15,002 bases of DNA from a virus. Taxonomy: Duplodnaviria; Heunggongvirae; Uroviricota; Caudoviricetes. Shown one piece after another: positions 995 through 12,354 of this stretch. The position numbers and the translations under genes were made by a program. The stretch's first letter is position 1. Each line of letters starts with the position of its first letter. Location: IMG/VR virus record IMGVR_UViG_2579779049_000022, one strand, 5' to 3'. The notes below the pieces were generated by a model. It was not told where the DNA came from, did no database searches, and saw only the letters and a program-made list of their open reading frames with translations.

Positions 995-1069
995 TGGTGT
1001 CCCCTGCAGGAATCGAACCTGCAATTAGCCCTTAGGAGGGGCTCGTTATATCCATTTAACTAAGAGGAC
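995..1069 (-). tRNA. argW: tRNA-Arg (anticodon CCU)
   Basis: Reverse complement of 995-1069 is GTCCTCTTAGTTAAATGGATATAACGAGCCCCTCCTAAGGGCTAATTGCAGGTTCGATTCCTGCAGGGGACACCA: 75 nt with encoded CCA end, T-arm GGTTCGATTCC and anticodon loop CUCCUAAGG. Matches recalled E. coli argW. Confidence 0.92.
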
Positions 1070-1189: not shown

Positions 1190-2434
1190 GTGTTTTGTTC
1201 ACTTGCTAATGCGTACATATTGAGTACAGAATACATTATAAACTTGTGTACAGGATATAAAGCATTGGCACTGAGTGACACCAAACTACGAGGCCTATAC
1301 GGAAAACCCTACTCTGGCCCTGCTGAAATCACCGATGGTGACGGGTTAAGTGTGCGGATTACTCCAGCAGGAACTATCACGTTTCAGTACCGTTATCGCT
1401 GGAATGGTAAGCCAGTACGTCTTACTGTCGGGCGCTATCCGTCCACTTCACTGAAGGACGCACGTGTTATCGTCGGTGAGATGCGCGCATTGTACATGAA
1501 GGGAGTTAACCCTAAAAATTATTTTGCCCCCAGTGATGGCGAATTGACATTAAAAGAATGCTTGGATCAGTGGTGGGATAAGTATGTTAGCGGCCTGAAA
1601 CCCAATACTCAGACGCTTTATAGATCTGTTGTGTACAACACCATGTACACACAGTTTGAAGACTCGCCAGTTGCCGGTATCCCTGTATCGGCCTGGGCTC
1701 GCTTTTTTGACAAACAAGAAAGCCTCAACAAGAAAAAGGCTCGTGTTCTGTTGTTACAACTGCGTTCAGTTATTAACTGGTGTATCAGCCGCCAGTTAAT
1801 CCCATCATGCGAATTACTCAAACTCAGTGTAAAGAATATTGGGAAGAAACCAGATGTGGGGAGTCGCGTACTTACCTATACGGAACTGGCAAAGATCTGG
1901 CTGGCACTGGAGAACTCAAAAGTGGTTACTTCCAACAAGCTGTTACATCAATTGCTATTGCTATGGGGGGCCAGGCTTTCTGAGCTACGTCTCGCTACAG
2001 CCAGTGAGTTCAACATGGAAGATCTGGTCTGGACAACCCCTAAAGAGCATTCAAAGATGGGTAATATTATCCGACGTCCGATATTTACTCAGGTTGAGCC
2101 TTATATTGAGCGATTGCTTAATATCGGATTTGATGTGCTGTTCCCTGGGCAGGAAATAGATAAACCTATTGACCGTTCGTCTGCTAATTTGTACATGAAA
2201 AAACTCAGGGCGAAAATTGATATTCCTGAATGGAGAACGCATGATTTTAGGCGTTCTCTGGTAACGAATTTATCTGGGGAAGGAATTATGCCCCACGTCA
2301 CTGAAAAAATGCTGGGGCATGAACTGGGAGGAGTGATGGCCGTGTATAATAAACACGACTGGTTGTCGGAACAGAAAGATGCGTATGAGTTGTATGCTGA
2401 TAAAATTTTCTGGCACGCTAAACAGCTCGGTTAA
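1190..2434 (+). CDS. Tyrosine-type site-specific integrase (P4-like, N-terminal arm-binding domain)
   Basis: N-terminal LSDTKLRGL...GLSVRITPAGTITFQYRYRWNGKPVRLTVGRYP is integrase arm-binding (DUF4102-like). C-terminal catalytic region has WRTHDFRRS, LGH and AVYNKHDW (R/H-x-x-R/Y motifs). No in-frame ATG near the 5' end, so start is GTG at 1190 or a downstream TTG (~1249/1264). Confidence 0.9.
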   Translation: MFCSLANAYILSTEYIINLCTGYKALALSDTKLRGLYGKPYSGPAEITDGDGLSVRITPAGTITFQYRYRWNGKPVRLTVGRYPSTSLKDARVIVGEMRALYMKGVNPKNYFAPSDGELTLKECLDQWWDKYVSGLKPNTQTLYRSVVYNTMYTQFEDSPVAGIPVSAWARFFDKQESLNKKKARVLLLQLRSVINWCISRQLIPSCELLKLSVKNIGKKPDVGSRVLTYTELAKIWLALENSKVVTSNKLLHQLLLLWGARLSELRLATASEFNMEDLVWTTPKEHSKMGNIIRRPIFTQVEPYIERLLNIGFDVLFPGQEIDKPIDRSSANLYMKKLRAKIDIPEWRTHDFRRSLVTNLSGEGIMPHVTEKMLGHELGGVMAVYNKHDWLSEQKDAYELYADKIFWHAKQLG

Positions 2435-2600
2435 TTCCTCCGGCTTTAAGCCATTGTTCAACGGCCTGACGGCTATATCGCGCCGGATGAGTAAGTACTG
2501 GATCAGGGAATCCGTGTTTTTTTCGCAAATTATACAAAGCTGTGCGCCTTTTTTGTAACAACTCAGAAACTTCTTTTTCGGTCATTAAGTTGATTTCCAT
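2418..2600 (-). CDS. AlpA-family phage transcriptional regulator / excisionase-like small HTH protein
   Basis: 60 aa product MEINLMTEKEVSELLQKRRTALYNLRKKHGFPDPV..., AlpA/excisionase-like HTH. RBS AAGGAG lies 8 nt upstream of the ATG. Convergent with the integrase, with 17 bp 3' overlap. Confidence 0.75.
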   Translation of the reverse strand: MEINLMTEKEVSELLQKRRTALYNLRKKHGFPDPVLTHPARYSRQAVEQWLKAGGINRAV

Positions 2601-2629
2601 AGTATGCTCTCCTTTTCTACATGTTTTTC

Positions 2630-2659
2630 AACAGCATAATAAACCGCCCGAAGGCGGTT
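2630..2659 (-). terminator. Rho-independent terminator candidate for the leftward operon
   Basis: Hairpin AACCGCC-cgaa-GGCGGTT (2642-2659) followed on the minus strand by a U-rich tract (UUUAUUAUG), directly after the stop of ORF 2661-2912. Confidence 0.5.
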
Positions 2660-2660
2660 G

Positions 2661-2912
2661 TTAGTTGATTGATGTACGGCGCATTTTTCGAAGGCTGGCA
2701 ATATGCTTTTCCTTCTCAATTTCCGCTTTAATCATATGCAGTTCGTTGTGCTCTATTCGCTCAAATTCTTCATTAAATGCACCAATTGAAGTGGCTCTGG
2801 TTCTGCCGTCGAGCCTTCGGTAGATCACCTGAGTCAGAGTTACCTTGCATATTTCTACCGGATAGTTGTTGGCATCAACGAAAGACTGCCCGCGCTGGAT
2901 CAGGACGAACAC
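2661..2912 (-). CDS. Hypothetical protein (GTG start)
   Basis: 83-codon ORF in the minus-strand operon, 13 bp overlap with the upstream ORF. No recognisable motif. May be one frameshifted gene together with 2900-3133. Confidence 0.4.
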   Translation of the reverse strand: MFVLIQRGQSFVDANNYPVEICKVTLTQVIYRRLDGRTRATSIGAFNEEFERIEHNELHMIKAEIEKEKHIASLRKMRRTSIN

Positions 2913-3133
2913 TGGTTGTATTCCTTGAGTGCCATATCATAAACACGGCATGCCGAGAGGTGTGTTGTAGTCAACGTCGTTCGTATCCTGAAAAGTCCAT
3001 GTGTTGTGACGGTAACTTCCGGGGCTTTGAGTTTCACTGCATCAACGATATGCTGATGTTTGCGGCTTTCGAATATAGAGCTGGAGATAACCACACTTGC
3101 TGTTAAACCGTAACTTTCAAATGTGATTTTCAT
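2900..3133 (-). CDS. Hypothetical protein (77 aa; start trimmed to MKITFESYG)
   Basis: RBS GAGGA 7 nt upstream of the ATG at 3131-3133. The longer 126 aa ORF in the track has an implausible N-terminal extension through AT-rich promoter-like sequence. Confidence 0.45.
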   Translation of the reverse strand: MKITFESYGLTASVVISSSIFESRKHQHIVDAVKLKAPEVTVTTHGLFRIRTTLTTTHLSACRVYDMALKEYNQCSS

Positions 3134-3276: not shown

Positions 3277-3648
3277 TCACTCTGACAATTCGTTGATCAA
3301 GTCACGGTATTTATTCAGTTCTTGCAGCGCCTTACATGCACCCTCCCATCGTTTCTGTTTCCGCCCGGCGCGACGCGCTTCTTTCCGTGATTTACGTAGC
3401 AGGTCACCTATAATGTTGTGCTGCACTGGCTGCACTGGCTGCACTGGCTGCACTGAGGCGATATTTGGTTTTTTGTCCACTTCCCTTGCAACTGCCTGCC
3501 AGATGCCATTTTTTACAGTTACTACCCCCTGGTTTTTTAACTTCCATAGAGTGTCAATAACGTCATTCAAATCAATATTGAGACCTTTAGAAATACTTTC
3601 GGCTGATGCTTTTCCTAATTTGTTCAATTCTGTGAGCACTGCGTTCAT
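3277..3648 (-). CDS. Hypothetical protein with winged-helix-like N-terminus and internal (VQP)n repeat
   Basis: RBS AGGAG 6 nt upstream of the ATG. N-terminal region MNAVLTELNKLGKASAESISKGLNIDLNDVIDTLWKLKNQGVV looks like a DNA-binding wHTH. Basic C-terminus. Contains the 9-bp tandem repeat. Confidence 0.6.
   Translation of the reverse strand: MNAVLTELNKLGKASAESISKGLNIDLNDVIDTLWKLKNQGVVTVKNGIWQAVAREVDKKPNIASVQPVQPVQPVQHNIIGDLLRKSRKEARRAGRKQKRWEGACKALQELNKYRDLINELSE
3421..3456. repeat. Tandem repeat, 9-bp unit CTGCACTGG x4 (last copy CTGCACTGA)
   Basis: Direct reading of 3421-3456. Encodes VQPVQPVQPVQ in the minus-strand ORF 3277-3648. Confidence 0.9.
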
Positions 3649-3683: not shown

Positions 3684-3878
3684 TTATACGGTTGGTGAGG
3701 TGTCAGCTTCTTCTACCAGCTTTTCCAGTTCATCCAGCTTTCGGGAAAGAATTTCACCAAACAGATGAAGTTCTGCATCTGCTGTAATCGGGATTGGAAC
3801 AAATCGTATTCCACTTCTGGCAAGTTGATTTGCGATTTCCAGACACTGCCTTAATTCAACTGGTGATGCCTTTGTCAA
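3684..3878 (-). CDS. Hypothetical acidic small protein; start uncertain (TTG 3878, or ATG 3980 with 125 bp overlap of the methyltransferase gene)
   Basis: Protein-like ORF (...VELRQCLEIANQLARSGIRFVPIPITADAELHLFGEILSRKLDELEKLVEEADTSPTV) in a different frame from the MT-A70 3' end. No convincing SD at either candidate start. Confidence 0.35.
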   Translation of the reverse strand: MTKASPVELRQCLEIANQLARSGIRFVPIPITADAELHLFGEILSRKLDELEKLVEEADTSPTV

Positions 3879-4482
3879 CGTCGTTTTTTCGCTTATTGGT
3901 TTTCTCCAGAAATTTAACAATACCCGGAACCATCTCAATGGATGGTGTGCCGCATTGGTTACCCCATACATCAAATCCATGCGAGGTGTGGCGGGCGAAC
4001 AGTTCTATCCGGGGAACATCGCCAAGAAGTTGCACAAGTTTTTCTCGAGCCATATCCGGCTTGCGGGAGTGATCAAGGCGCGGTGCAGTGAATGACTGGA
4101 TTATTCCGGCGTTAATGCGTTCGGGCAGATTTCCTTTCACTGCAAAAAGGCAGTCTTCGCTGTTAGCGCGAGTGGTGCTACCCATACCCATGACCAGCTT
4201 GTCGGTCTGTCTTTTCCCGCATTTGTTCCAGGTTAATCCTTTCATCGTCACCAGACGAAAGCCCCACGCTTCTACAACCTTCAATGCTTCAAGTGGTTGT
4301 GTAGGCACCCACCACATAGACAACAGGCAATTATCGGCTGCCAGTTCCCATACCGGGAGGCGGCAGATATCCAGAAGACTCATGACCGGATATTTAAAAC
4401 TTGCACCGCGTTGACCATCGGTTGCTTTGTCGCGGAATGTCCAGGGGGGATCTGCGTAAATGAGGGTGTATTTTTTCGTCAT
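3856..4482 (-). CDS. MT-A70 family DNA N6-adenine methyltransferase (phage Dam-like)
   Basis: N-terminal LIYADPPW (DPPW catalytic motif) and C-terminal FDVWGNQ, characteristic of the MT-A70 family. ATGA start/stop overlap with the upstream gene at 4479-4482. Confidence 0.85.
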   Translation of the reverse strand: MTKKYTLIYADPPWTFRDKATDGQRGASFKYPVMSLLDICRLPVWELAADNCLLSMWWVPTQPLEALKVVEAWGFRLVTMKGLTWNKCGKRQTDKLVMGMGSTTRANSEDCLFAVKGNLPERINAGIIQSFTAPRLDHSRKPDMAREKLVQLLGDVPRIELFARHTSHGFDVWGNQCGTPSIEMVPGIVKFLEKTNKRKNDVDKGITS

Positions 4483-7051: not shown

Positions 7052-7459
7052 TCACTCTCCTTTGATGCGAATGCCAGTAGCGCGGATTGCATCGATGACT
7101 TCAGAAACTTTGTATGCCATTACCGTTTGGTAATCATCGTGAAAATCTGTTCGATGAAGCATGCTGCTACGTTCCGGGAGCAGTATTTCCCGCGCTTCCA
7201 GTTCTGCAATGCGCTTTTTTGCTGCTTCCAGTTCATCCAGTAATTCCAGCACGGTAGCCGGATTAGCCTTGGCAACAAAATCCCGGACTGGCTTACAATC
7301 AATCTCCGCAATGGGTTGATACGATGTGTAGCCATGCTGTCTTGTATAACTACCGTGACGAATAACGAAAAAATCACCATTTATTTTTTTAGCCTGCCAC
7401 TTATCTTCACCGGCTTTCTCTGCCGCTTCACGCAGTGCCTGATAGTCAATCTTGCTCAC
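7052..7459 (-). CDS. ead/Ea22-like family prophage protein (paralogue 1; GTG start)
   Basis: Coiled-coil motif ANPATVLELLDELEAAKKRIAELEAREILLP and C-terminal AIRATGIRIKGE. AGGAGG 6 nt upstream of GTG 7457-7459, which overlaps the upstream stop (GTGA). Paralogous to 9308-9769. Confidence 0.6.
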   Translation of the reverse strand: MSKIDYQALREAAEKAGEDKWQAKKINGDFFVIRHGSYTRQHGYTSYQPIAEIDCKPVRDFVAKANPATVLELLDELEAAKKRIAELEAREILLPERSSMLHRTDFHDDYQTVMAYKVSEVIDAIRATGIRIKGE

Positions 7460-7773
7460 TGGTTGCCTCCTTTGCGAAGCCGTTCCGCCCATTCTTCAAG
7501 GGATTTCTCTGCATATTCACCGGACAGGCCATCAATCGGATGCGATTCATTAGCTAACTCTTCTTTTGCTGACAGAATCATGCGCGTAACGTCGAAAACT
7601 TCACGTAAAGACTTATTGATAAATCCGTGGTTGAAAGCAGCAGCAAGACGGCTTGCGGTATAGTTAATCCCCTCGTTGCGAGCCTCCGCACGAATTTCAG
7701 CCAGAAAAGCATCGGTGGCTGGAATTTGCGGCATCCCTCCATCTGTTGCGCAGATATACGCATCAGATAGCTC
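7456..7773 (-). pseudogene. 3' portion of a prophage gene whose 5' end was removed by the IS insertion at 7774
   Basis: Frame is open upstream of the first ATG (7734) right up to the IS junction at 7773/7774. The Met at 7734 has an SD too close to be functional. Confidence 0.5.
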
Positions 7774-8103
7774 TGAACCGCCCCGGAAATCCTGGAGACT
7801 AAACTCCCTGAGAAAGAGGTAAACAGGATGACTAAAAATACTCGTTTTTCCCCCGAAGTCCGTCAGCGGGCGATTCGTATGGTTCTGGAAAGTCAGGATG
7901 AATATGACTCACAGTGGGCGGCAATTTGTTCCATTGCCCCAAAGATTGGCTGTACGCCGGAGACTCTGCGTGTCTGGGTTCGCCAGCATGAGCGGGATAC
8001 CGGGGGCGGTGATGGTGGGCTCACCAGCGCTGAACGTCAGCGTCTGAAAGAGCTGGAACGTGAAAATCGTGAACTGCGCCGCAGTAACGATATCCTTCGC
8101 CTT
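7774..8103 (+). mobile_element. Truncated IS3-family (IS629/IS1203-like) element, left end only
   Basis: Left end TGAACCGCCCCGGAAATCCTGGAGACTAAACTCCCTGAGAAAGAGGTAAACAGG plus orfA, identical to the inverted copy at 1-291. OrfA homology ends after ...RRSNDILR at ~8100 and there is no orfB, so the element is internally deleted. Confidence 0.75.
7828..8103 (+). pseudogene. IS3-family transposase OrfA, truncated at the 3' end
   Basis: Product [23 protein letters not shown]...[10 protein letters not shown] then diverges (LPFVHHG) into flanking prophage sequence. Confidence 0.7.
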
Positions 8104-8185
8104 CCATTTGTTCACCACGGGTAAGCCCGTTTTCAAGCGGATTTTTAATGAACAATTCAATACGTTCTTTGGTAATAGTGGTCAT
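8104..8185 (-). pseudogene. 5' fragment (27 codons) of a prophage gene truncated by the IS; N-terminus resembles the DUF551 gene
   Basis: ATG at 8183-8185 with RBS AAGGAG upstream. Encodes [28 protein letters not shown], compare MTTFTKERLL of 5960-6856. The frame runs into the IS remnant. Confidence 0.5.
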
Positions 8186-8973: not shown

Positions 8974-9330
8974 TTATTCAGTTCTGGATTTTGTCACCCT
9001 GCGTATCCGCGCTTTCGCGTTACGCTCAATCTGAATTAACTTTTCTATATTTTTCCGCCTTTCCTGTTCCTCCTGGCGCAATAGCTTTACATCATCTGCC
9101 AGCCTAGTTTCTCTTTTCGCCACAGAGAGCATCCAGTCAAATGGCTCCACAACTGCACCGCAGATTTTACAGCGGACCTGACGCTCTTTTTCGTCAACCC
9201 GGACAGAGGCGTGATGACAATATGGTCTTTCCGATGGCTCATAAAGAAAATTAACCTGATTACGAGGGTCATCCTCTTTTACCGGAAATAAAACGATATT
9301 GCTTAACTCATCTTCTGGTTTTATTTCCAT
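8974..9330 (-). CDS. Zinc-ribbon-containing hypothetical protein
   Basis: AAGGAG RBS upstream. Cys/His cluster PYCHHASVRVDEKERQVRCKICGAVVEPFDW, then a basic coiled-coil-like C-terminus. Confidence 0.55.
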   Translation of the reverse strand: MEIKPEDELSNIVLFPVKEDDPRNQVNFLYEPSERPYCHHASVRVDEKERQVRCKICGAVVEPFDWMLSVAKRETRLADDVKLLRQEEQERRKNIEKLIQIERNAKARIRRVTKSRTE

Positions 9331-9769
9331 GCTCCTCTCCTTTGATGCGAATGCCAGCGACGCGTAATGCGTGTTCTAGGTCAATCAGGTAAAGCCAACT
9401 GCCATTTTCTTTAGGTATCATGACATGTCGCTCATCTGCATTTATCGGGTGTCCATATCGAAGGTCGTAGCGAGTCGGTAATTGAACTTCCCGCGCATCC
9501 AGTTCAGCAATACGCTTGCTCCCATCAGAGATAACGCCTTCGTAATACTCACGCTGCTCGTTGAGTTGTGATTTTGCTTCTTCCAGTCCATCCAGCAAAC
9601 CAGCGATAATATCCGCTTCCCGATGACGGATATGACGCTTAAACGCAGCAAGAGCCGCATCACAATCCCGTTCAGCATTTGGGCTGTCCGGGGTAGCCTG
9701 ATACCACGCCAGCGTCGACTGATAGTTTTGTGCTGCCTCACGAAGCGCCTCATAGTTAACCTCTCTCAT
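9308..9769 (-). CDS. ead/Ea22-like family prophage protein (paralogue 2, C-terminally extended by loss of the stop codon)
   Basis: Shares YEALREAA, LLDxLEEAK, RIAELxAREVxLP and AxRxAGIRIKGE with 7052-7459. The junction sequence CTCCTTTGATGCGAATGCCAG repeats at 7055-7075 and 9336-9356. Here the equivalent stop is GAG, so the ORF runs 24 nt into the next gene. Confidence 0.6.
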   Translation of the reverse strand: MREVNYEALREAAQNYQSTLAWYQATPDSPNAERDCDAALAAFKRHIRHREADIIAGLLDGLEEAKSQLNEQREYYEGVISDGSKRIAELDAREVQLPTRYDLRYGHPINADERHVMIPKENGSWLYLIDLEHALRVAGIRIKGEEHGNKTRR

Positions 9770-10062
9770 TGAGCCACCTCCTGATAAATCACCGCATGCC
9801 CCAGTCTCTCCGCCAGTGCCAGCTCTGCCTTAGCGCCCGCTGACCGCTGCCAGCCATTCAGCATGTAAATCGCATCCACACAACGAATCATTGCCATGCA
9901 AATATCCATGTAGTGCGGCTGTGTCAGCCCGTCCGGAAGTACTGCCGGGTTTAAGACGGTATGCCCTTCCCGTTTCAGTTCCTCTTCCACCTTGTGAAAT
10001 GCCTCACGGTTGAAATTTTCATATCCCGTCATTGGACCGGCAATATAAACTCTCACCCTCAC
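9766..10062 (-). CDS. DUF4406-like protein (nucleoside 2-deoxyribosyltransferase-like fold)
   Basis: N-terminal MRVRVYIAGPMTGYENFNREAF (YIAGPM motif) recalled as the DUF4406 signature. GTG start overlaps the upstream stop (GTGA); AGGAGGTGA RBS. ATGA overlap with the downstream gene. Confidence 0.65.
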   Translation of the reverse strand: MRVRVYIAGPMTGYENFNREAFHKVEEELKREGHTVLNPAVLPDGLTQPHYMDICMAMIRCVDAIYMLNGWQRSAGAKAELALAERLGHAVIYQEVAQ

Positions 10063-10481
10063 TCCATCACCTCCTGAAAGTTTCCCCGATAGAACGCCAG
10101 CACACGCTGCATAACTTCGCTCCTCCTGCTCTCACGACAAATTATGTTCTGGTGCCTGTCGTAGCGGCGTATTTCGCCGTCTGGTAACGACCAGATAAGG
10201 TCCGGATCAACCACTGCAGGTTTCTTCAGCTTTGCCCTTGAGAGCTTTTTACGGGTATTTTGCCAGTCCTTACGCGCCTGTTCAGACGGGAATAACCCGT
10301 AACCAGAGTTGTATACATCGCCACTGGCAACCAGCTCTCTGGCCAGAACGCTCATCAGATATCTTGTTGCCCCAGTTTTAGCTTCCAGTTGTCGTAACGT
10401 CTCGCGCCCACTCTGGCGTACGAGTTCAAGAACCTGCCCTTTAATTTTTTCCCGCTCTTCTTGTGTAAAAACTTTTGCCAC
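10059..10481 (-). CDS. Hypothetical protein directly downstream of the replication gene (possible replication accessory/DNA-binding protein)
   Basis: GTG start with AGGAGGG RBS. N-terminal region LELVRQSGRETLRQLEAKTGATRYLMSVLARELVASG is wHTH-like. Function not recognised. Confidence 0.5.
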   Translation of the reverse strand: MAKVFTQEEREKIKGQVLELVRQSGRETLRQLEAKTGATRYLMSVLARELVASGDVYNSGYGLFPSEQARKDWQNTRKKLSRAKLKKPAVVDPDLIWSLPDGEIRRYDRHQNIICRESRRSEVMQRVLAFYRGNFQEVME

Positions 10482-10521: not shown

Positions 10522-11592
10522 TTACCCCCTGAAGCCCGGCGGAATTTCGTTATCCGGTTCAGAAATATGATTCACACAACGCTGGTTGTTCGTGCCGCTT
10601 ACCGGGAGCAACCAGGGGTTCTCAAAATTCCGGTCCGGTCCAAAAAACGTCGTCGCTCGCTGAACAAATTCCGTTCCCGTTTTCCCGGTAGCCGCCAAGT
10701 ATCTTGCGTAACGCCTCACGCCATCCAGCATGGCCTCTGGTGGCACCCCCTCGCGTAATCTGGCCTTCCAGGCACTGAAAGCGGATTTCTTCGGGTTTGC
10801 CCCAGCACGCAACGGGTACTCCCGCCAGACCTGTTCGAACACATCCGGATAATCCACTCGTCCCACAGACTGACCGGTGTTTTCCGGGACTACCCGATCG
10901 GCTTCCCGCTGAATGGCGGAATCGGCTTCAGGCTGCTGCAGTTGGTGTGATTGCTCCGGCCTTGCGGTCATCACCTGCTGCACAGCGCCCGAATCGGCTT
11001 TCAGCGCATACGCTGAATCGGCTTCCGGTGTCGTGCCTGCTGGCTGACCAGGATTGACGGTCTGAACATCCCCTGCCTGGTTCGTGGCGTTTTTTACGCC
11101 ATGGACCATAGTGTTTTGATCTTCTTGATCTGTATCTTTATCTGTATCTTTATCTGTCGTGACTCGTCGTGACATGTGCGTGACATTTCGTGACGCGCCG
11201 TGACAATCGCCATTTTGTTCCCGCTTTCTTTCCCTCTCTCGCTGCGCCCTCTTGCGCTCTGCAGGAGATTTTGCGGTTTGCGAAATATTGCCGTTGTCCT
11301 CTTTAAGCACCTGGCGTTTTTCCCATCCAGTGATTAAATCACCATCAAGTACCCGCCCCTGCATCGTCTGCAAAATTGAATCAATTACCTCTTCTGTCAC
11401 GTCGAGCGCACTTGCCAAATCTTCTGTCGTGACATCAATGTGACCTCGCGTGACATTTCGTGACGCGCTCACCAGGAGGTGGATATACACTGCCATCACT
11501 GTTGCAATTGGCTGCCCTGACACCCTGGCAATTGTTCGCCACTTAGGGTCATTTGGCATGTCATGCCATAATCTGAGCCAGGCGTTAGCCAT
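10522..11592 (-). CDS. Phage replication initiator / replisome-organiser-like protein with internal origin-like iterons
   Basis: Position immediately after the Cro-like and YdaT-like genes. Architecture is N-domain, low-complexity linker (DKDTDKDTD, Q/P/T-rich), C-domain (DYPDVFEQVWREYPLRAGANPKKSAFSAWKARL...TFFGPDRNFENPW). Iteron-like CGTGAC repeats and an AT-rich tandem repeat lie inside the coding sequence, as in the lambda O gene. Confidence 0.65.
   Translation of the reverse strand: MANAWLRLWHDMPNDPKWRTIARVSGQPIATVMAVYIHLLVSASRNVTRGHIDVTTEDLASALDVTEEVIDSILQTMQGRVLDGDLITGWEKRQVLKEDNGNISQTAKSPAERKRAQRERERKREQNGDCHGASRNVTHMSRRVTTDKDTDKDTDQEDQNTMVHGVKNATNQAGDVQTVNPGQPAGTTPEADSAYALKADSGAVQQVMTARPEQSHQLQQPEADSAIQREADRVVPENTGQSVGRVDYPDVFEQVWREYPLRAGANPKKSAFSAWKARLREGVPPEAMLDGVRRYARYLAATGKTGTEFVQRATTFFGPDRNFENPWLLPVSGTNNQRCVNHISEPDNEIPPGFRG
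11128..11157. repeat. 12-bp tandem repeat (TGTATCTTTATC x ~2.5), AT-rich, adjacent to iterons
   Basis: Direct reading. Encodes DKDTDKDTD in the minus-strand replication gene. Confidence 0.85.
11158..11204. repeat. Iteron-like array A: five CGTGAC hexamers at 10-11 bp spacing
   Basis: CGTGAC starts at 11158, 11168, 11179, 11189 and 11199, a helical-turn periodicity. Overlaps the 21-bp direct repeat GCGTGACATTTCGTGACGCGC (11178-11198). Confidence 0.7.
11396..11468. repeat. Iteron-like array B: inverted GTCACG (11396) then CGTGAC/TGTGAC hexamers at 11428, 11439, 11449, 11459
   Basis: Contains a second exact copy of GCGTGACATTTCGTGACGCGC (11448-11468), 270 bp from the first. Confidence 0.65.
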
Positions 11593-11663
11593 ACTCACCT
11601 CTTCTGATACCGAATCTTTTTACTCACGAGTTGCCGGAAGCGATTCGATACGGCTATTGTCAG

Positions 11664-12089
11664 TCAATGTACTGCCACAGCATTTCCTGCCGGGCCACCA
11701 CGGTTCATCTGATTGAAACCGGCGATTGCCACTGCGACAAAATCATCAGCGTCTCTCACCAGTCGCTCCCGCGTCTCCACCAGCTCCCGAAAATAAGCTG
11801 AACTGTGGCTGCGCATTCTGGCCACCAGCAAAGGTGGCATTGCCTTTTCGATCGCTGGTAACAACGCCTGAATTTTTTCAACTGCATCAGGGGTGTCTTT
11901 CTCTACCCAGCGGAAAATTTTCTGGGTATTGCGAGCCAGGGCTTCCGGATGGCTGTCGTCATACAGTTCAGGAAACGTCATACCCAACTCAAAATAAGCC
12001 TGGGTTATTCCAGCTGCTGGAACTTTTTCGCCATCAGGACGCGCCCAGGCATTCATCGCCATGCGGATGTGTTCATGCTTGATTTTCAT
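11664..12089 (-). CDS. ydaT: YdaT-like prophage protein (CII-position regulator)
   Basis: N-terminal MKIKHEHI... matches recalled Rac YdaT. Sits directly downstream of the Cro-like gene with 17 bp overlap; AGGAG RBS 8 nt upstream of the ATG. Confidence 0.6.
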   Translation of the reverse strand: MKIKHEHIRMAMNAWARPDGEKVPAAGITQAYFELGMTFPELYDDSHPEALARNTQKIFRWVEKDTPDAVEKIQALLPAIEKAMPPLLVARMRSHSSAYFRELVETRERLVRDADDFVAVAIAGFNQMNRGGPAGNAVAVH

Positions 12090-12354
12090 GAATCAAGCTC
12101 CTAGTAAGTGGTTGTGTTAACGTTTTGGTATCTTCCAGCTCGGGCCAAATATTCATCCAATCAAAAGGCCTTAGTTGCTGACGTGTAACTTCACCATTAC
12201 TGGCTCGCTCAATAAGGACACATAACGATGCCCCTAACATTTGACCTTTACTCAATGCCTTTCTTAGATAACCGATGCTAGTACCACACTCACATGCAAA
12301 CATACGCTGTTCATCTGACGAAAGAGAATTGAGAAATATTCTTAATTCTTCCAT
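12073..12354 (-). CDS. ydaS: YdaS-like Cro-type HTH regulator (first gene of the rightward-equivalent early operon)
   Basis: Strong RBS AAGGAG 5 nt upstream of the ATG. Motif ...CGTSIGYLRKAL...NGEVTRQQLRP resembles the YdaS/Cro-like HTH family. Divergent from the repressor gene. Confidence 0.65.
   Translation of the reverse strand: MEELRIFLNSLSSDEQRMFACECGTSIGYLRKALSKGQMLGASLCVLIERASNGEVTRQQLRPFDWMNIWPELEDTKTLTQPLTRSLIHENQA

Follow-up and report, generated by a model that had tools for sequence, protein, structure and literature searches.

The DNA considered here is a stretch of 15,002 nucleotides from the IMG/VR virus record IMGVR_UViG_2579779049_000022 (the whole stretch is called the window hereafter), and it is a part of an Escherichia coli prophage. 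On its minus strand, three short genes follow one another with overlapping ends: a 140-aa gene of the DUF977 or 'LygF' family, a relative of lambda ren (10059-10481 (-), Pfam PF06163, E 3.1e-29), a 98-aa gene of the DUF4406 family (9766-10062 (-)), and a 153-aa Ead/Ea22-like gene (9308-9769 (-), Pfam PF13935, E 6.2e-11), which is the downstream partner in a conserved block. The main subject of this text is the 98-aa protein, which its modelled fold places in the nucleoside 2-deoxyribosyltransferase (NDT) superfamily as a minimal member. Our leading candidate for its activity, to which we would give an even chance of being right, is that of an N-glycosidase that depends on Glu80 and has a deoxynucleoside 5'-monophosphate (dNMP) as its substrate, as suggested by its conserved residues.

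The 140-aa open reading frame (ORF) ends with ...ATGGAGTGA, and the GTG start of the 98-aa ORF lies inside that stop, forming a GTGA overlap at 10059-10062 (-) with an AGGAGG 7 nt upstream of the GTG. The 98-aa ORF in turn ends with ...CAATGA, and this stop is overlapped by the ATG of the 153-aa Ea22-like ORF (ATGA at 9766-9769 (-), read from the sequence). Both overlaps had been pointed out in a first-pass annotation of the window, and they are real and conserved. In the 80 IMG/VR loci closest to the DUF4406 gene, to which all counts out of 80 in this text refer, the 5' GTGA is kept in 80/80, whichever gene lies directly upstream (DUF977 in 65/80 and DUF1627 in 14/80), and the 3' ATGA is found in 66/80; the Ea22-like gene comes after DUF4406 in most of them. 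Since the third codon of the DUF4406 gene is GTC instead of GTG in 29/80 loci, the first GTG is its start. Copies of the gene have a median ratio of nonsynonymous to synonymous changes (dN/dS) of 0.078 over 404 pairs, which means strong purifying selection. Because of the Pfam matches, this selection, the conserved overlaps and the start-codon pattern, both 9766-10062 and 10059-10481 are real genes and not chance ORFs. They are also common prophage genes with names already in place: close copies of DUF4406 (at least 80% DNA identity) are present in 1207 of the 5426 complete E. coli genomes searched (22%), and the Prokaryotic Genome Annotation Pipeline (PGAP) calls the two products 'DUF4406 domain-containing protein' and 'DUF977 family protein'.

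Fold and predicted active site of the DUF4406 protein

The 98-aa protein matches Pfam DUF4406 (PF14359) with 126.5 bits and E 5.4e-37 over profile positions 2-91 of 91, where the gathering threshold for the whole domain is 22 bits. The family is large, with 11,796 representatives at 50% identity (E <= 1e-3), and it is matched in 627 phage records, the hosts of which are Arthrobacter, Vibrio, Gordonia, Mycobacterium, Pseudomonas and others. The AlphaFold (AF2) model of the window protein has a pLDDT of 90.7 and consists of four strands and four helices in about 95 residues. When this model was compared with the PDB by Foldseek, the top match was the NDT of T. brucei (E 3e-5, TM 0.75), followed by CtNDT and then by DNPH1, MilB and BcmB. 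Moreover, among the sequence searches only a profile of 66 diverse DUF4406 members led to NDTs, with a match to T. brucei NDT at E 1.4e-4. Searches of PDB sequences with the single sequence and with close-family profiles gave no match for either the 98-aa or the 140-aa protein, and a search of NCBIfam gave none for the two. As far as the model tells, the DUF4406 protein belongs to the NDT superfamily and has its flavodoxin-like alpha/beta fold, so that the fold supposed in the first-pass annotation holds.

Public names of DUF4406 homologues are sometimes misleading. The label 'MazG-like pyrophosphatase' on gp4 of Dinoroseobacter phage R7L (1459-1827) is a PHROG naming artefact, as gp4 has DUF4406 only and gp5 is not MazG, and no deaminase domain backs the 'deoxycytidylate deaminase' labels on Nebkiss gp126 (1510-1797) and LESphi3 gp11 (2501-3037). 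These unsupported names appear to be carried over from mixed clusters. Long 'fusion' representatives of DUF4406 (200-358 aa) were set aside as well; they are without a second Pfam domain and are probably over-extended metagenomic gene calls.

Which residues could form an active site in so small a domain? The predicted ones are Y6, G9, M11-T12-G13, C55, S74, G76 and E80. Among 150 DUF4406 representatives clustered at 50% identity, S74, G9 and F22 are conserved in 100%, E80, G76 and P39 in 99%, N18 in 94% and W71 in 93%; position 6 is Tyr in 86% and Phe in 13%, and position 55 is Cys in 70% and Asp in 13%. In the hhalign alignment with rat Rcl/DNPH1, whose sequence was confirmed against PDB 2khz, the correspondences are Y6=Y13, G9=G16, M11-T12-G13=I18-R19-G20, C55=D69, S74=S87, G76=G89 and E80=E93. 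In alignments with TbNDT and BcmB, E80 falls on their catalytic Glu, and in that with DmtZ on E103; it lies at the helix start after a G-x-x-x-E loop, the place of the Glu nucleophile. Y6, which aligns with the Tyr of TbNDT too, is at the end of beta1, where a Tyr or Phe orients that Glu. The phosphate-binding pattern, Ser six and Gly four residues before the Glu, is present in S74 and G76, and S74 corresponds to a Ser of BcmB as well.

These correspondences gain meaning from studied enzymes. In the rat DNPH1 enzyme, contacts to the phosphate come from Ser87, Ser117' and the backbone of residues 18-20 and 89, and contacts to the ribose from Gly16, Gly89 and Glu93 (PMC3834327). The human enzyme has the triad Y24/D80/E104, and its S98 and S128' contact the phosphate (PMC10603095). 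MilB uses Ser97 and Gly99 for phosphate binding and cannot do without E103, and the single mutation F17Y switches the substrate from CMP to dCMP (PMC4081090); because of this switch, Tyr6 points to a 2'-deoxy substrate. So, on its residues, DUF4406 carries the signature of the branch acting on 5'-phosphorylated substrates, together with the Tyr tied to 2'-deoxy substrates.

Many phage records prefer another reading, namely that the protein is a true nucleoside 2-deoxyribosyltransferase, an enzyme exchanging bases between deoxynucleosides. Homologues bear this name in phrog_355 and in many GenBank records, and it agrees with NDTs being the best Foldseek matches, with Tyr6 and Glu80 being common to NDTs, and with the characterisation of a PF05014 phage NDT with dA preference (bioRxiv 10.1101/2025.10.22.683976). 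Nevertheless, in the alignment nucleoside-specific NDTs have Asp at the Ser74 position, where it binds the 5'-OH, while DUF4406 has there an invariant Ser as in 5'-phosphate-binding hydrolases (PMC3834327, PMC4081090). DUF4406 also lacks the C-terminal part by which the site of NDTs is completed, and the partners of the family in other phages, MazG-like genes described below, act on phosphorylated nucleotides. We regard base swapping between nucleosides as unlikely.

Proposed activity and partners in other phages

The N-glycosidase that we favour for the 98-aa protein would, by inference, be a retaining enzyme on a 2'-deoxynucleoside 5'-monophosphate. Glu80, positioned by Tyr6, would attack C1' to form a covalent deoxyribosyl-5-phosphate-enzyme intermediate, and the same Tyr6 would keep out a 2'-OH. 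The 5'-phosphate would be held by Ser74, Gly76 and the backbone of the beta1 loop (M11-T12-G13), with Cys55 standing in place of the general-acid Asp. The products would be a free base and deoxyribose 5-phosphate, or else the sugar phosphate might be transferred to another base. Expressed from the early rightward operon with its translation coupled to the preceding gene, such an enzyme may edit or sanitise the nucleotide pool during phage DNA replication.

The neighbours of distant DUF4406 members in other phages fit an activity on nucleotides. In Mycobacterium phage Dove, gp151 is a fusion of DUF4406 with a MazG/PRA-PH-type domain; in phage Nebkiss and Vibrio phage 1.087.A, the next, overlapping gene after DUF4406 is MazG-like, and the C-terminal domain of Dove gp151 is homologous to this neighbour in 1.087.A. 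A characterised phage pair, the dATP pyrophosphatase DutZ and the NDT-like dAMP N-glycosidase/transferase DmtZ, is encoded by adjacent genes of phage Ghobes and as a fusion by phage Wayne (PMC12884076). The DUF4406-MazG pairing parallels the pair of DutZ and DmtZ. In those phage lineages, a MazG-type NTP pyrophosphatase and DUF4406 might make up a two-step route from NTP to NMP and then to base and sugar phosphate.

Several points weigh against the proposed activity. Taken by itself, the hhalign match between DUF4406 and Rcl is weak (probability 1.3%, E 0.041), and therefore the mapping of residues relies on the independent fold match; the mapping is based on alignment and not on three-dimensional coordinates. 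The Asp serving as general acid, in the helix before beta4, is replaced by C55 at the position of Rcl D69. In DNPH1 and NDTs, the neighbouring subunit completes the active site through a C-terminal extension or fifth strand (Ser117'/Ser128' or Asn123'). The 98-aa protein stops at residue 98, directly after beta4, so that extension and fifth strand are absent, and DUF4406 has no counterpart of the second phosphate ligand, which the rat and human enzymes receive from the C-terminal helix of the partner subunit as Ser117' and Ser128', respectively. The window encodes neither a MazG nor a dUTPase partner. Outside the close relatives, neighbours were surveyed in 75-80 species-level bacterial genomes, and no fixed neighbour was found across 75 of them, nor is MazG among the neighbour families listed. 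Finally, our literature searches on DUF4406 turned up mentions of the family, but no paper on its function and no characterised member. The departure at Cys55 is softened by what is seen in relatives. TbNDT and DmtZ carry Asn at this position (C55 corresponds to N77 of DmtZ), Asn is the middle triad residue of TbPDT and phage DmtZ, and the N77D variant of DmtZ stays active with altered efficiency (PMC12884076). Within DUF4406, actinophage members have Asp at position 55, and some members possess the full Tyr-Asp-Glu triad.

If the general acid is lost and the domain is shorter than all characterised enzymes of the superfamily, one may ask whether the protein is a catalyst at all. It could be a non-catalytic accessory of replication that binds nucleotides or proteins, or a decaying remnant of a domain, and the gene does come directly after replication genes in 13/75 species-level loci. 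Yet Ser74 and Glu80 are near-invariant in a family of about 11,800 clusters, purifying selection is strong, some members have a complete triad, and the block is found after unrelated replication modules. These points make a protein without catalysis improbable in our eyes, and we keep to the dNMP N-glycosidase.

The first-pass annotation also thought of an anti-defence function. On such a reading, the protein would hydrolyse or sequester a nucleotide-derived immune signal or an NAD-related molecule by its TIR/SLOG-like fold. The conserved motifs are those of the NDT/NMP-glycosidase branch and not of TIR; PADLOC models gave no match for either the 98-aa or the 140-aa protein; the species-level neighbour survey revealed no consistent linkage to known anti-defence genes; and the MazG pairing suggests ordinary nucleotide metabolism. 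Nothing found so far speaks for an anti-defence role, and we hold it, too, for unlikely. In Vibrio phage 1.087.A and Pseudomonas phage LESphi3, the gene directly upstream of DUF4406 encodes a DNA methyltransferase; phiKO2 has such a gene nearby, and 5/145 neighbour genes of DUF4406 in other species are of this kind; in the window itself, an MT-A70-type DNA methyltransferase gene (3856-4482 (-)) belongs to the same operon. A role like that of an S-adenosylhomocysteine nucleosidase, considered since DNA methyltransferases are frequent neighbours, was dropped: the phosphate-binding motif argues against a non-phosphorylated substrate.

A wider view of the family can be put forward, tentatively and well short of an even chance. 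DUF4406 might be a large class of minimal phage dNMP N-glycosidases or deoxyribose 5-phosphate transferases without the C-terminal subunit-swap element, in which a gamma-proteobacterial clade has Cys for the general-acid Asp, and whose members, alone or with MazG-type pyrophosphatases, clear a certain nucleotide out of the pool while the phage replicates. That nucleotide could be a methylated or damaged dNMP from degraded DNA, or one that a host defence system makes. If the predicted activity holds, a very common small phage gene gains a function, that of destroying a deoxynucleotide monophosphate selectively or exchanging its base, and the family would contain the smallest working NDT/DNPH1 active site, of interest both for biocatalysis and for nucleotide sanitation of the DNPH1 type. 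DUF4406 homologues are present in hundreds of phages that infect Actinobacteria, Vibrio, Pseudomonas and other hosts, and the family as a whole is a worthwhile biochemical target.

The DUF977 gene and the prophage setting

What, then, is the 140-aa protein encoded directly upstream? Its match is to phrog_142, named 'Ren-like exclusion protein' (E 1.3e-45), and this is also the PHROG to which lambda Ren is assigned (E 1.6e-41). By hhalign, the DUF977 profile and the Ren profile are related with a probability of 94% (E 1.2e-7), sharing the C-terminal motif, which reads N-I-x-x-E-(C/S)-R-x-S-x-x-M-x-R-V-L-A-x-Y in DUF977, and the N-terminal halves with their winged helix-turn-helix (wHTH) align too. 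In the AF2 model of the 140-aa protein, residues 10-85 form a winged helix with pLDDT of about 90, and Foldseek finds for this model only winged-helix domains of the GntR, MarR, IclR and DtxR types, all weakly (E >= 8.5e-3). The order of genes agrees with these matches. In Rac-SA53 it is initiator (DUF1376+DnaT), lambda-P-like gene, DUF1627, DUF977, DUF4406 and Ead; a lambda-P-like gene lies upstream of DUF977 in 38/80 related loci; and the order in the lambda operon is cro-cII-O-P-ren (PMC3640518). Because DUF977 stands downstream of a lambda-P-like gene in related prophages and lambda has this order, DUF977 occupies the ren slot and not the P slot. On PHROG, motif and position alike, the 140-aa gene is a relative of lambda ren, coding for a winged helix and a conserved C-terminal helix, and its function is separate from that of DUF4406. 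Literature searches on DUF977 and LygF found no functional study.

The first-pass annotation had placed the 140-aa gene where a helicase loader would be expected, and functionally this placement is wrong. As to likeness to the known loaders (lambda P, DnaC/IstB, DnaD/DnaI), DUF977 is the sole Pfam match of the 140-aa protein, PDB sequences give it no match, and no loader is among its Foldseek matches. Might DUF977 still replace a loader that the replication module is missing? No companion gene of the lambda-P or DnaC type for the initiator exists anywhere in the window, DUF977 comes directly after the initiator, and this arrangement is repeated in 7/80 related loci and in phages Evi and Tritos. 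This idea is hard to reconcile with a Ren relative bearing a winged-helix domain, with the lambda-P-like gene often standing upstream of DUF977, and with DUF977 itself missing from 14/80 loci; in addition, the initiator could recruit host factors by its own C-terminal half. We consider such a replacement very improbable. The initiator gene (10522-11598 (-), 358 aa, phrog_3729 E 5.6e-258; PGAP name 'phage replisome organizer') provides context and lies outside the mosaic block, ending 40 bp before the 140-aa gene. Residues 124-358 of its product match phrog_1701 'DnaD-like helicase loader', the C-terminal half is also like primosomal proteins, and its final 24 residues are similar to the C-terminus of E. 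coli DnaT (E 7e-4, which falls short of the family cut-off). This initiator and that of Rac-SA53 are unrelated, and related prophages with a different initiator do have a P-like gene. From these resemblances, the DnaD-like/primosomal half and the DnaT-like tail may explain how the module does without a separate loader.

The block of DUF977, DUF4406 and Ea22 is found behind replication modules of at least two unrelated kinds, and for this reason its association with replication is one of position only, in a genome that is a mosaic. The coupling to the replication module claimed in the first-pass annotation therefore stands only in part: translation is coupled to whichever gene lies upstream, while no particular initiator or neighbour goes with the block. 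In the species-level genomes, the upstream neighbours of DUF4406 include replication proteins (13/75), DNA methylases, Lar, dUTPase and dCTP-deaminase-like proteins, and the downstream ones include holins, methylases, VRR-NUC and NinX; taken together, they belong to replication, methylase, nin-type and lysis genes of phages. Since its immediate neighbours vary in this way, DUF4406 is a mosaic accessory gene of the replication-to-lysis region without an obligatory partner. For the window, the result mostly tidies the annotation, the gene after the initiator being a Ren relative and DUF4406 such an accessory gene; what the first-pass annotation had observed is confirmed, and its interpretation is partly supported.

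The best genome matches to the window are chromosomes of O121/O111 Shiga toxin-producing E. coli (99.6% identity). One prophage end is marked by a tRNA-Arg(CCT) gene (995-1069 (-)) adjoining a tyrosine integrase gene (1190-2434 (+)). The long minus-strand operon begins at a promoter-like site near 12406-12379, and a Cro/YdaS-like protein (12073-12354 (-)) and a CII/YdaT-like protein (11664-12089 (-)) are encoded first and second in it, before the initiator. After the Ea22-like gene, it continues with a zinc-ribbon gene and more accessory genes until the integrase is reached. From 12354 to 8600, the minus strand showed neither a promoter-like nor a terminator-like site, which is consistent with a single operon. 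This Cro-side early operon, replication genes included, points towards the integrase, the reverse of the lambda layout.

Some further features of the operon deserve mention. It contains two Ead/Ea22-like paralogues (9308-9769 (-) and 7052-7492 (-)) with alike C-terminal ends (...AGIRIKGE), and the PGAP name of the former, 'RseB domain-containing', looks like a spurious weak Pfam match. On the opposite strand, a 98-aa HTH_Tnp_1 transposase fragment of orfA type (7828-8124 (+)) lies within the minus-strand operon and is probably a remnant of an insertion sequence. A 123-aa ORF (3277-3648 (-)) is similar to DUF1627 in the C-terminal end alone (profile positions 111-153) and may be a displaced fragment of it; related prophages have a complete DUF1627 gene, placed between the P-like gene and DUF977.

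Comparison with known systems

Lambda Ren has a role in escape from Rex exclusion. DUF977 has in common with it the PHROG, the C-terminal motif, the aligned N-terminal wHTH and the place after the replication genes in the pR operon (PMC3640518). It differs in its length (140 aa versus 96 aa in Ren), which includes an insertion of about 45 residues, and tblastn between the two gives no match. At residue 118, in the E-C-R-x-S part of the motif, Ser is found in DUF977 of the window and its closest relatives, and Cys in most other DUF977 proteins and almost all aligned relatives of lambda Ren.

On the side of DUF4406, the flavodoxin-like NDT fold is common to DNPH1/Rcl and the CMP N-glycosidases MilB, BcmB and BlsM. 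The beta1 motif Y-x-x-G-x-x-x-G and the motif S-x-G-x-x-x-E of this group align residue-for-residue with DUF4406 (PMC3834327, PMC10603095, PMC4081090), and its Tyr at the 2'-discriminating position is as in the deoxy-specific enzymes. The differences are also clear. DUF4406 has about 95 aa and the group 130-170 aa, so that the fifth strand, the C-terminal helix and an equivalent of Ser117'/Ser128' are lacking; Cys55 stands for the general-acid Asp; N18-R19, the P39/P43-G45 loop and W71 are conserved in DUF4406 specifically; and pairwise sequence similarity to the group is not significant. DUF1937 (PDB 1t1j, Pseudomonas PA1492) is also among the closest known systems and contributes no mechanism.

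DmtZ of the PurZ0 phages (Ghobes gp53 and the NDT-Dut fusion of Wayne) is a phage enzyme of the NDT superfamily that acts on a dNMP, dAMP (PMC12884076). The middle residue of its triad Y6-N77-E103 is not Asp, as in DUF4406 here, an NTP pyrophosphatase is its neighbour or fusion partner, much as in the DUF4406-MazG pairs, and its 'PDG' loop and x-G-x-x-x-E motif align with those of DUF4406. On the other hand, DmtZ has 161 aa with a C-terminal part, and it belongs to the dZ-genome pathway, which is absent from this prophage. Its membership in DUF4406 was considered and rejected, as it does not match PF14359, reaches only E 0.0026 with PF05014 and gives E 0.12 with DUF4406 by hhalign. DmtZ is a functional analogue of DUF4406 within the superfamily rather than a relative within the family.

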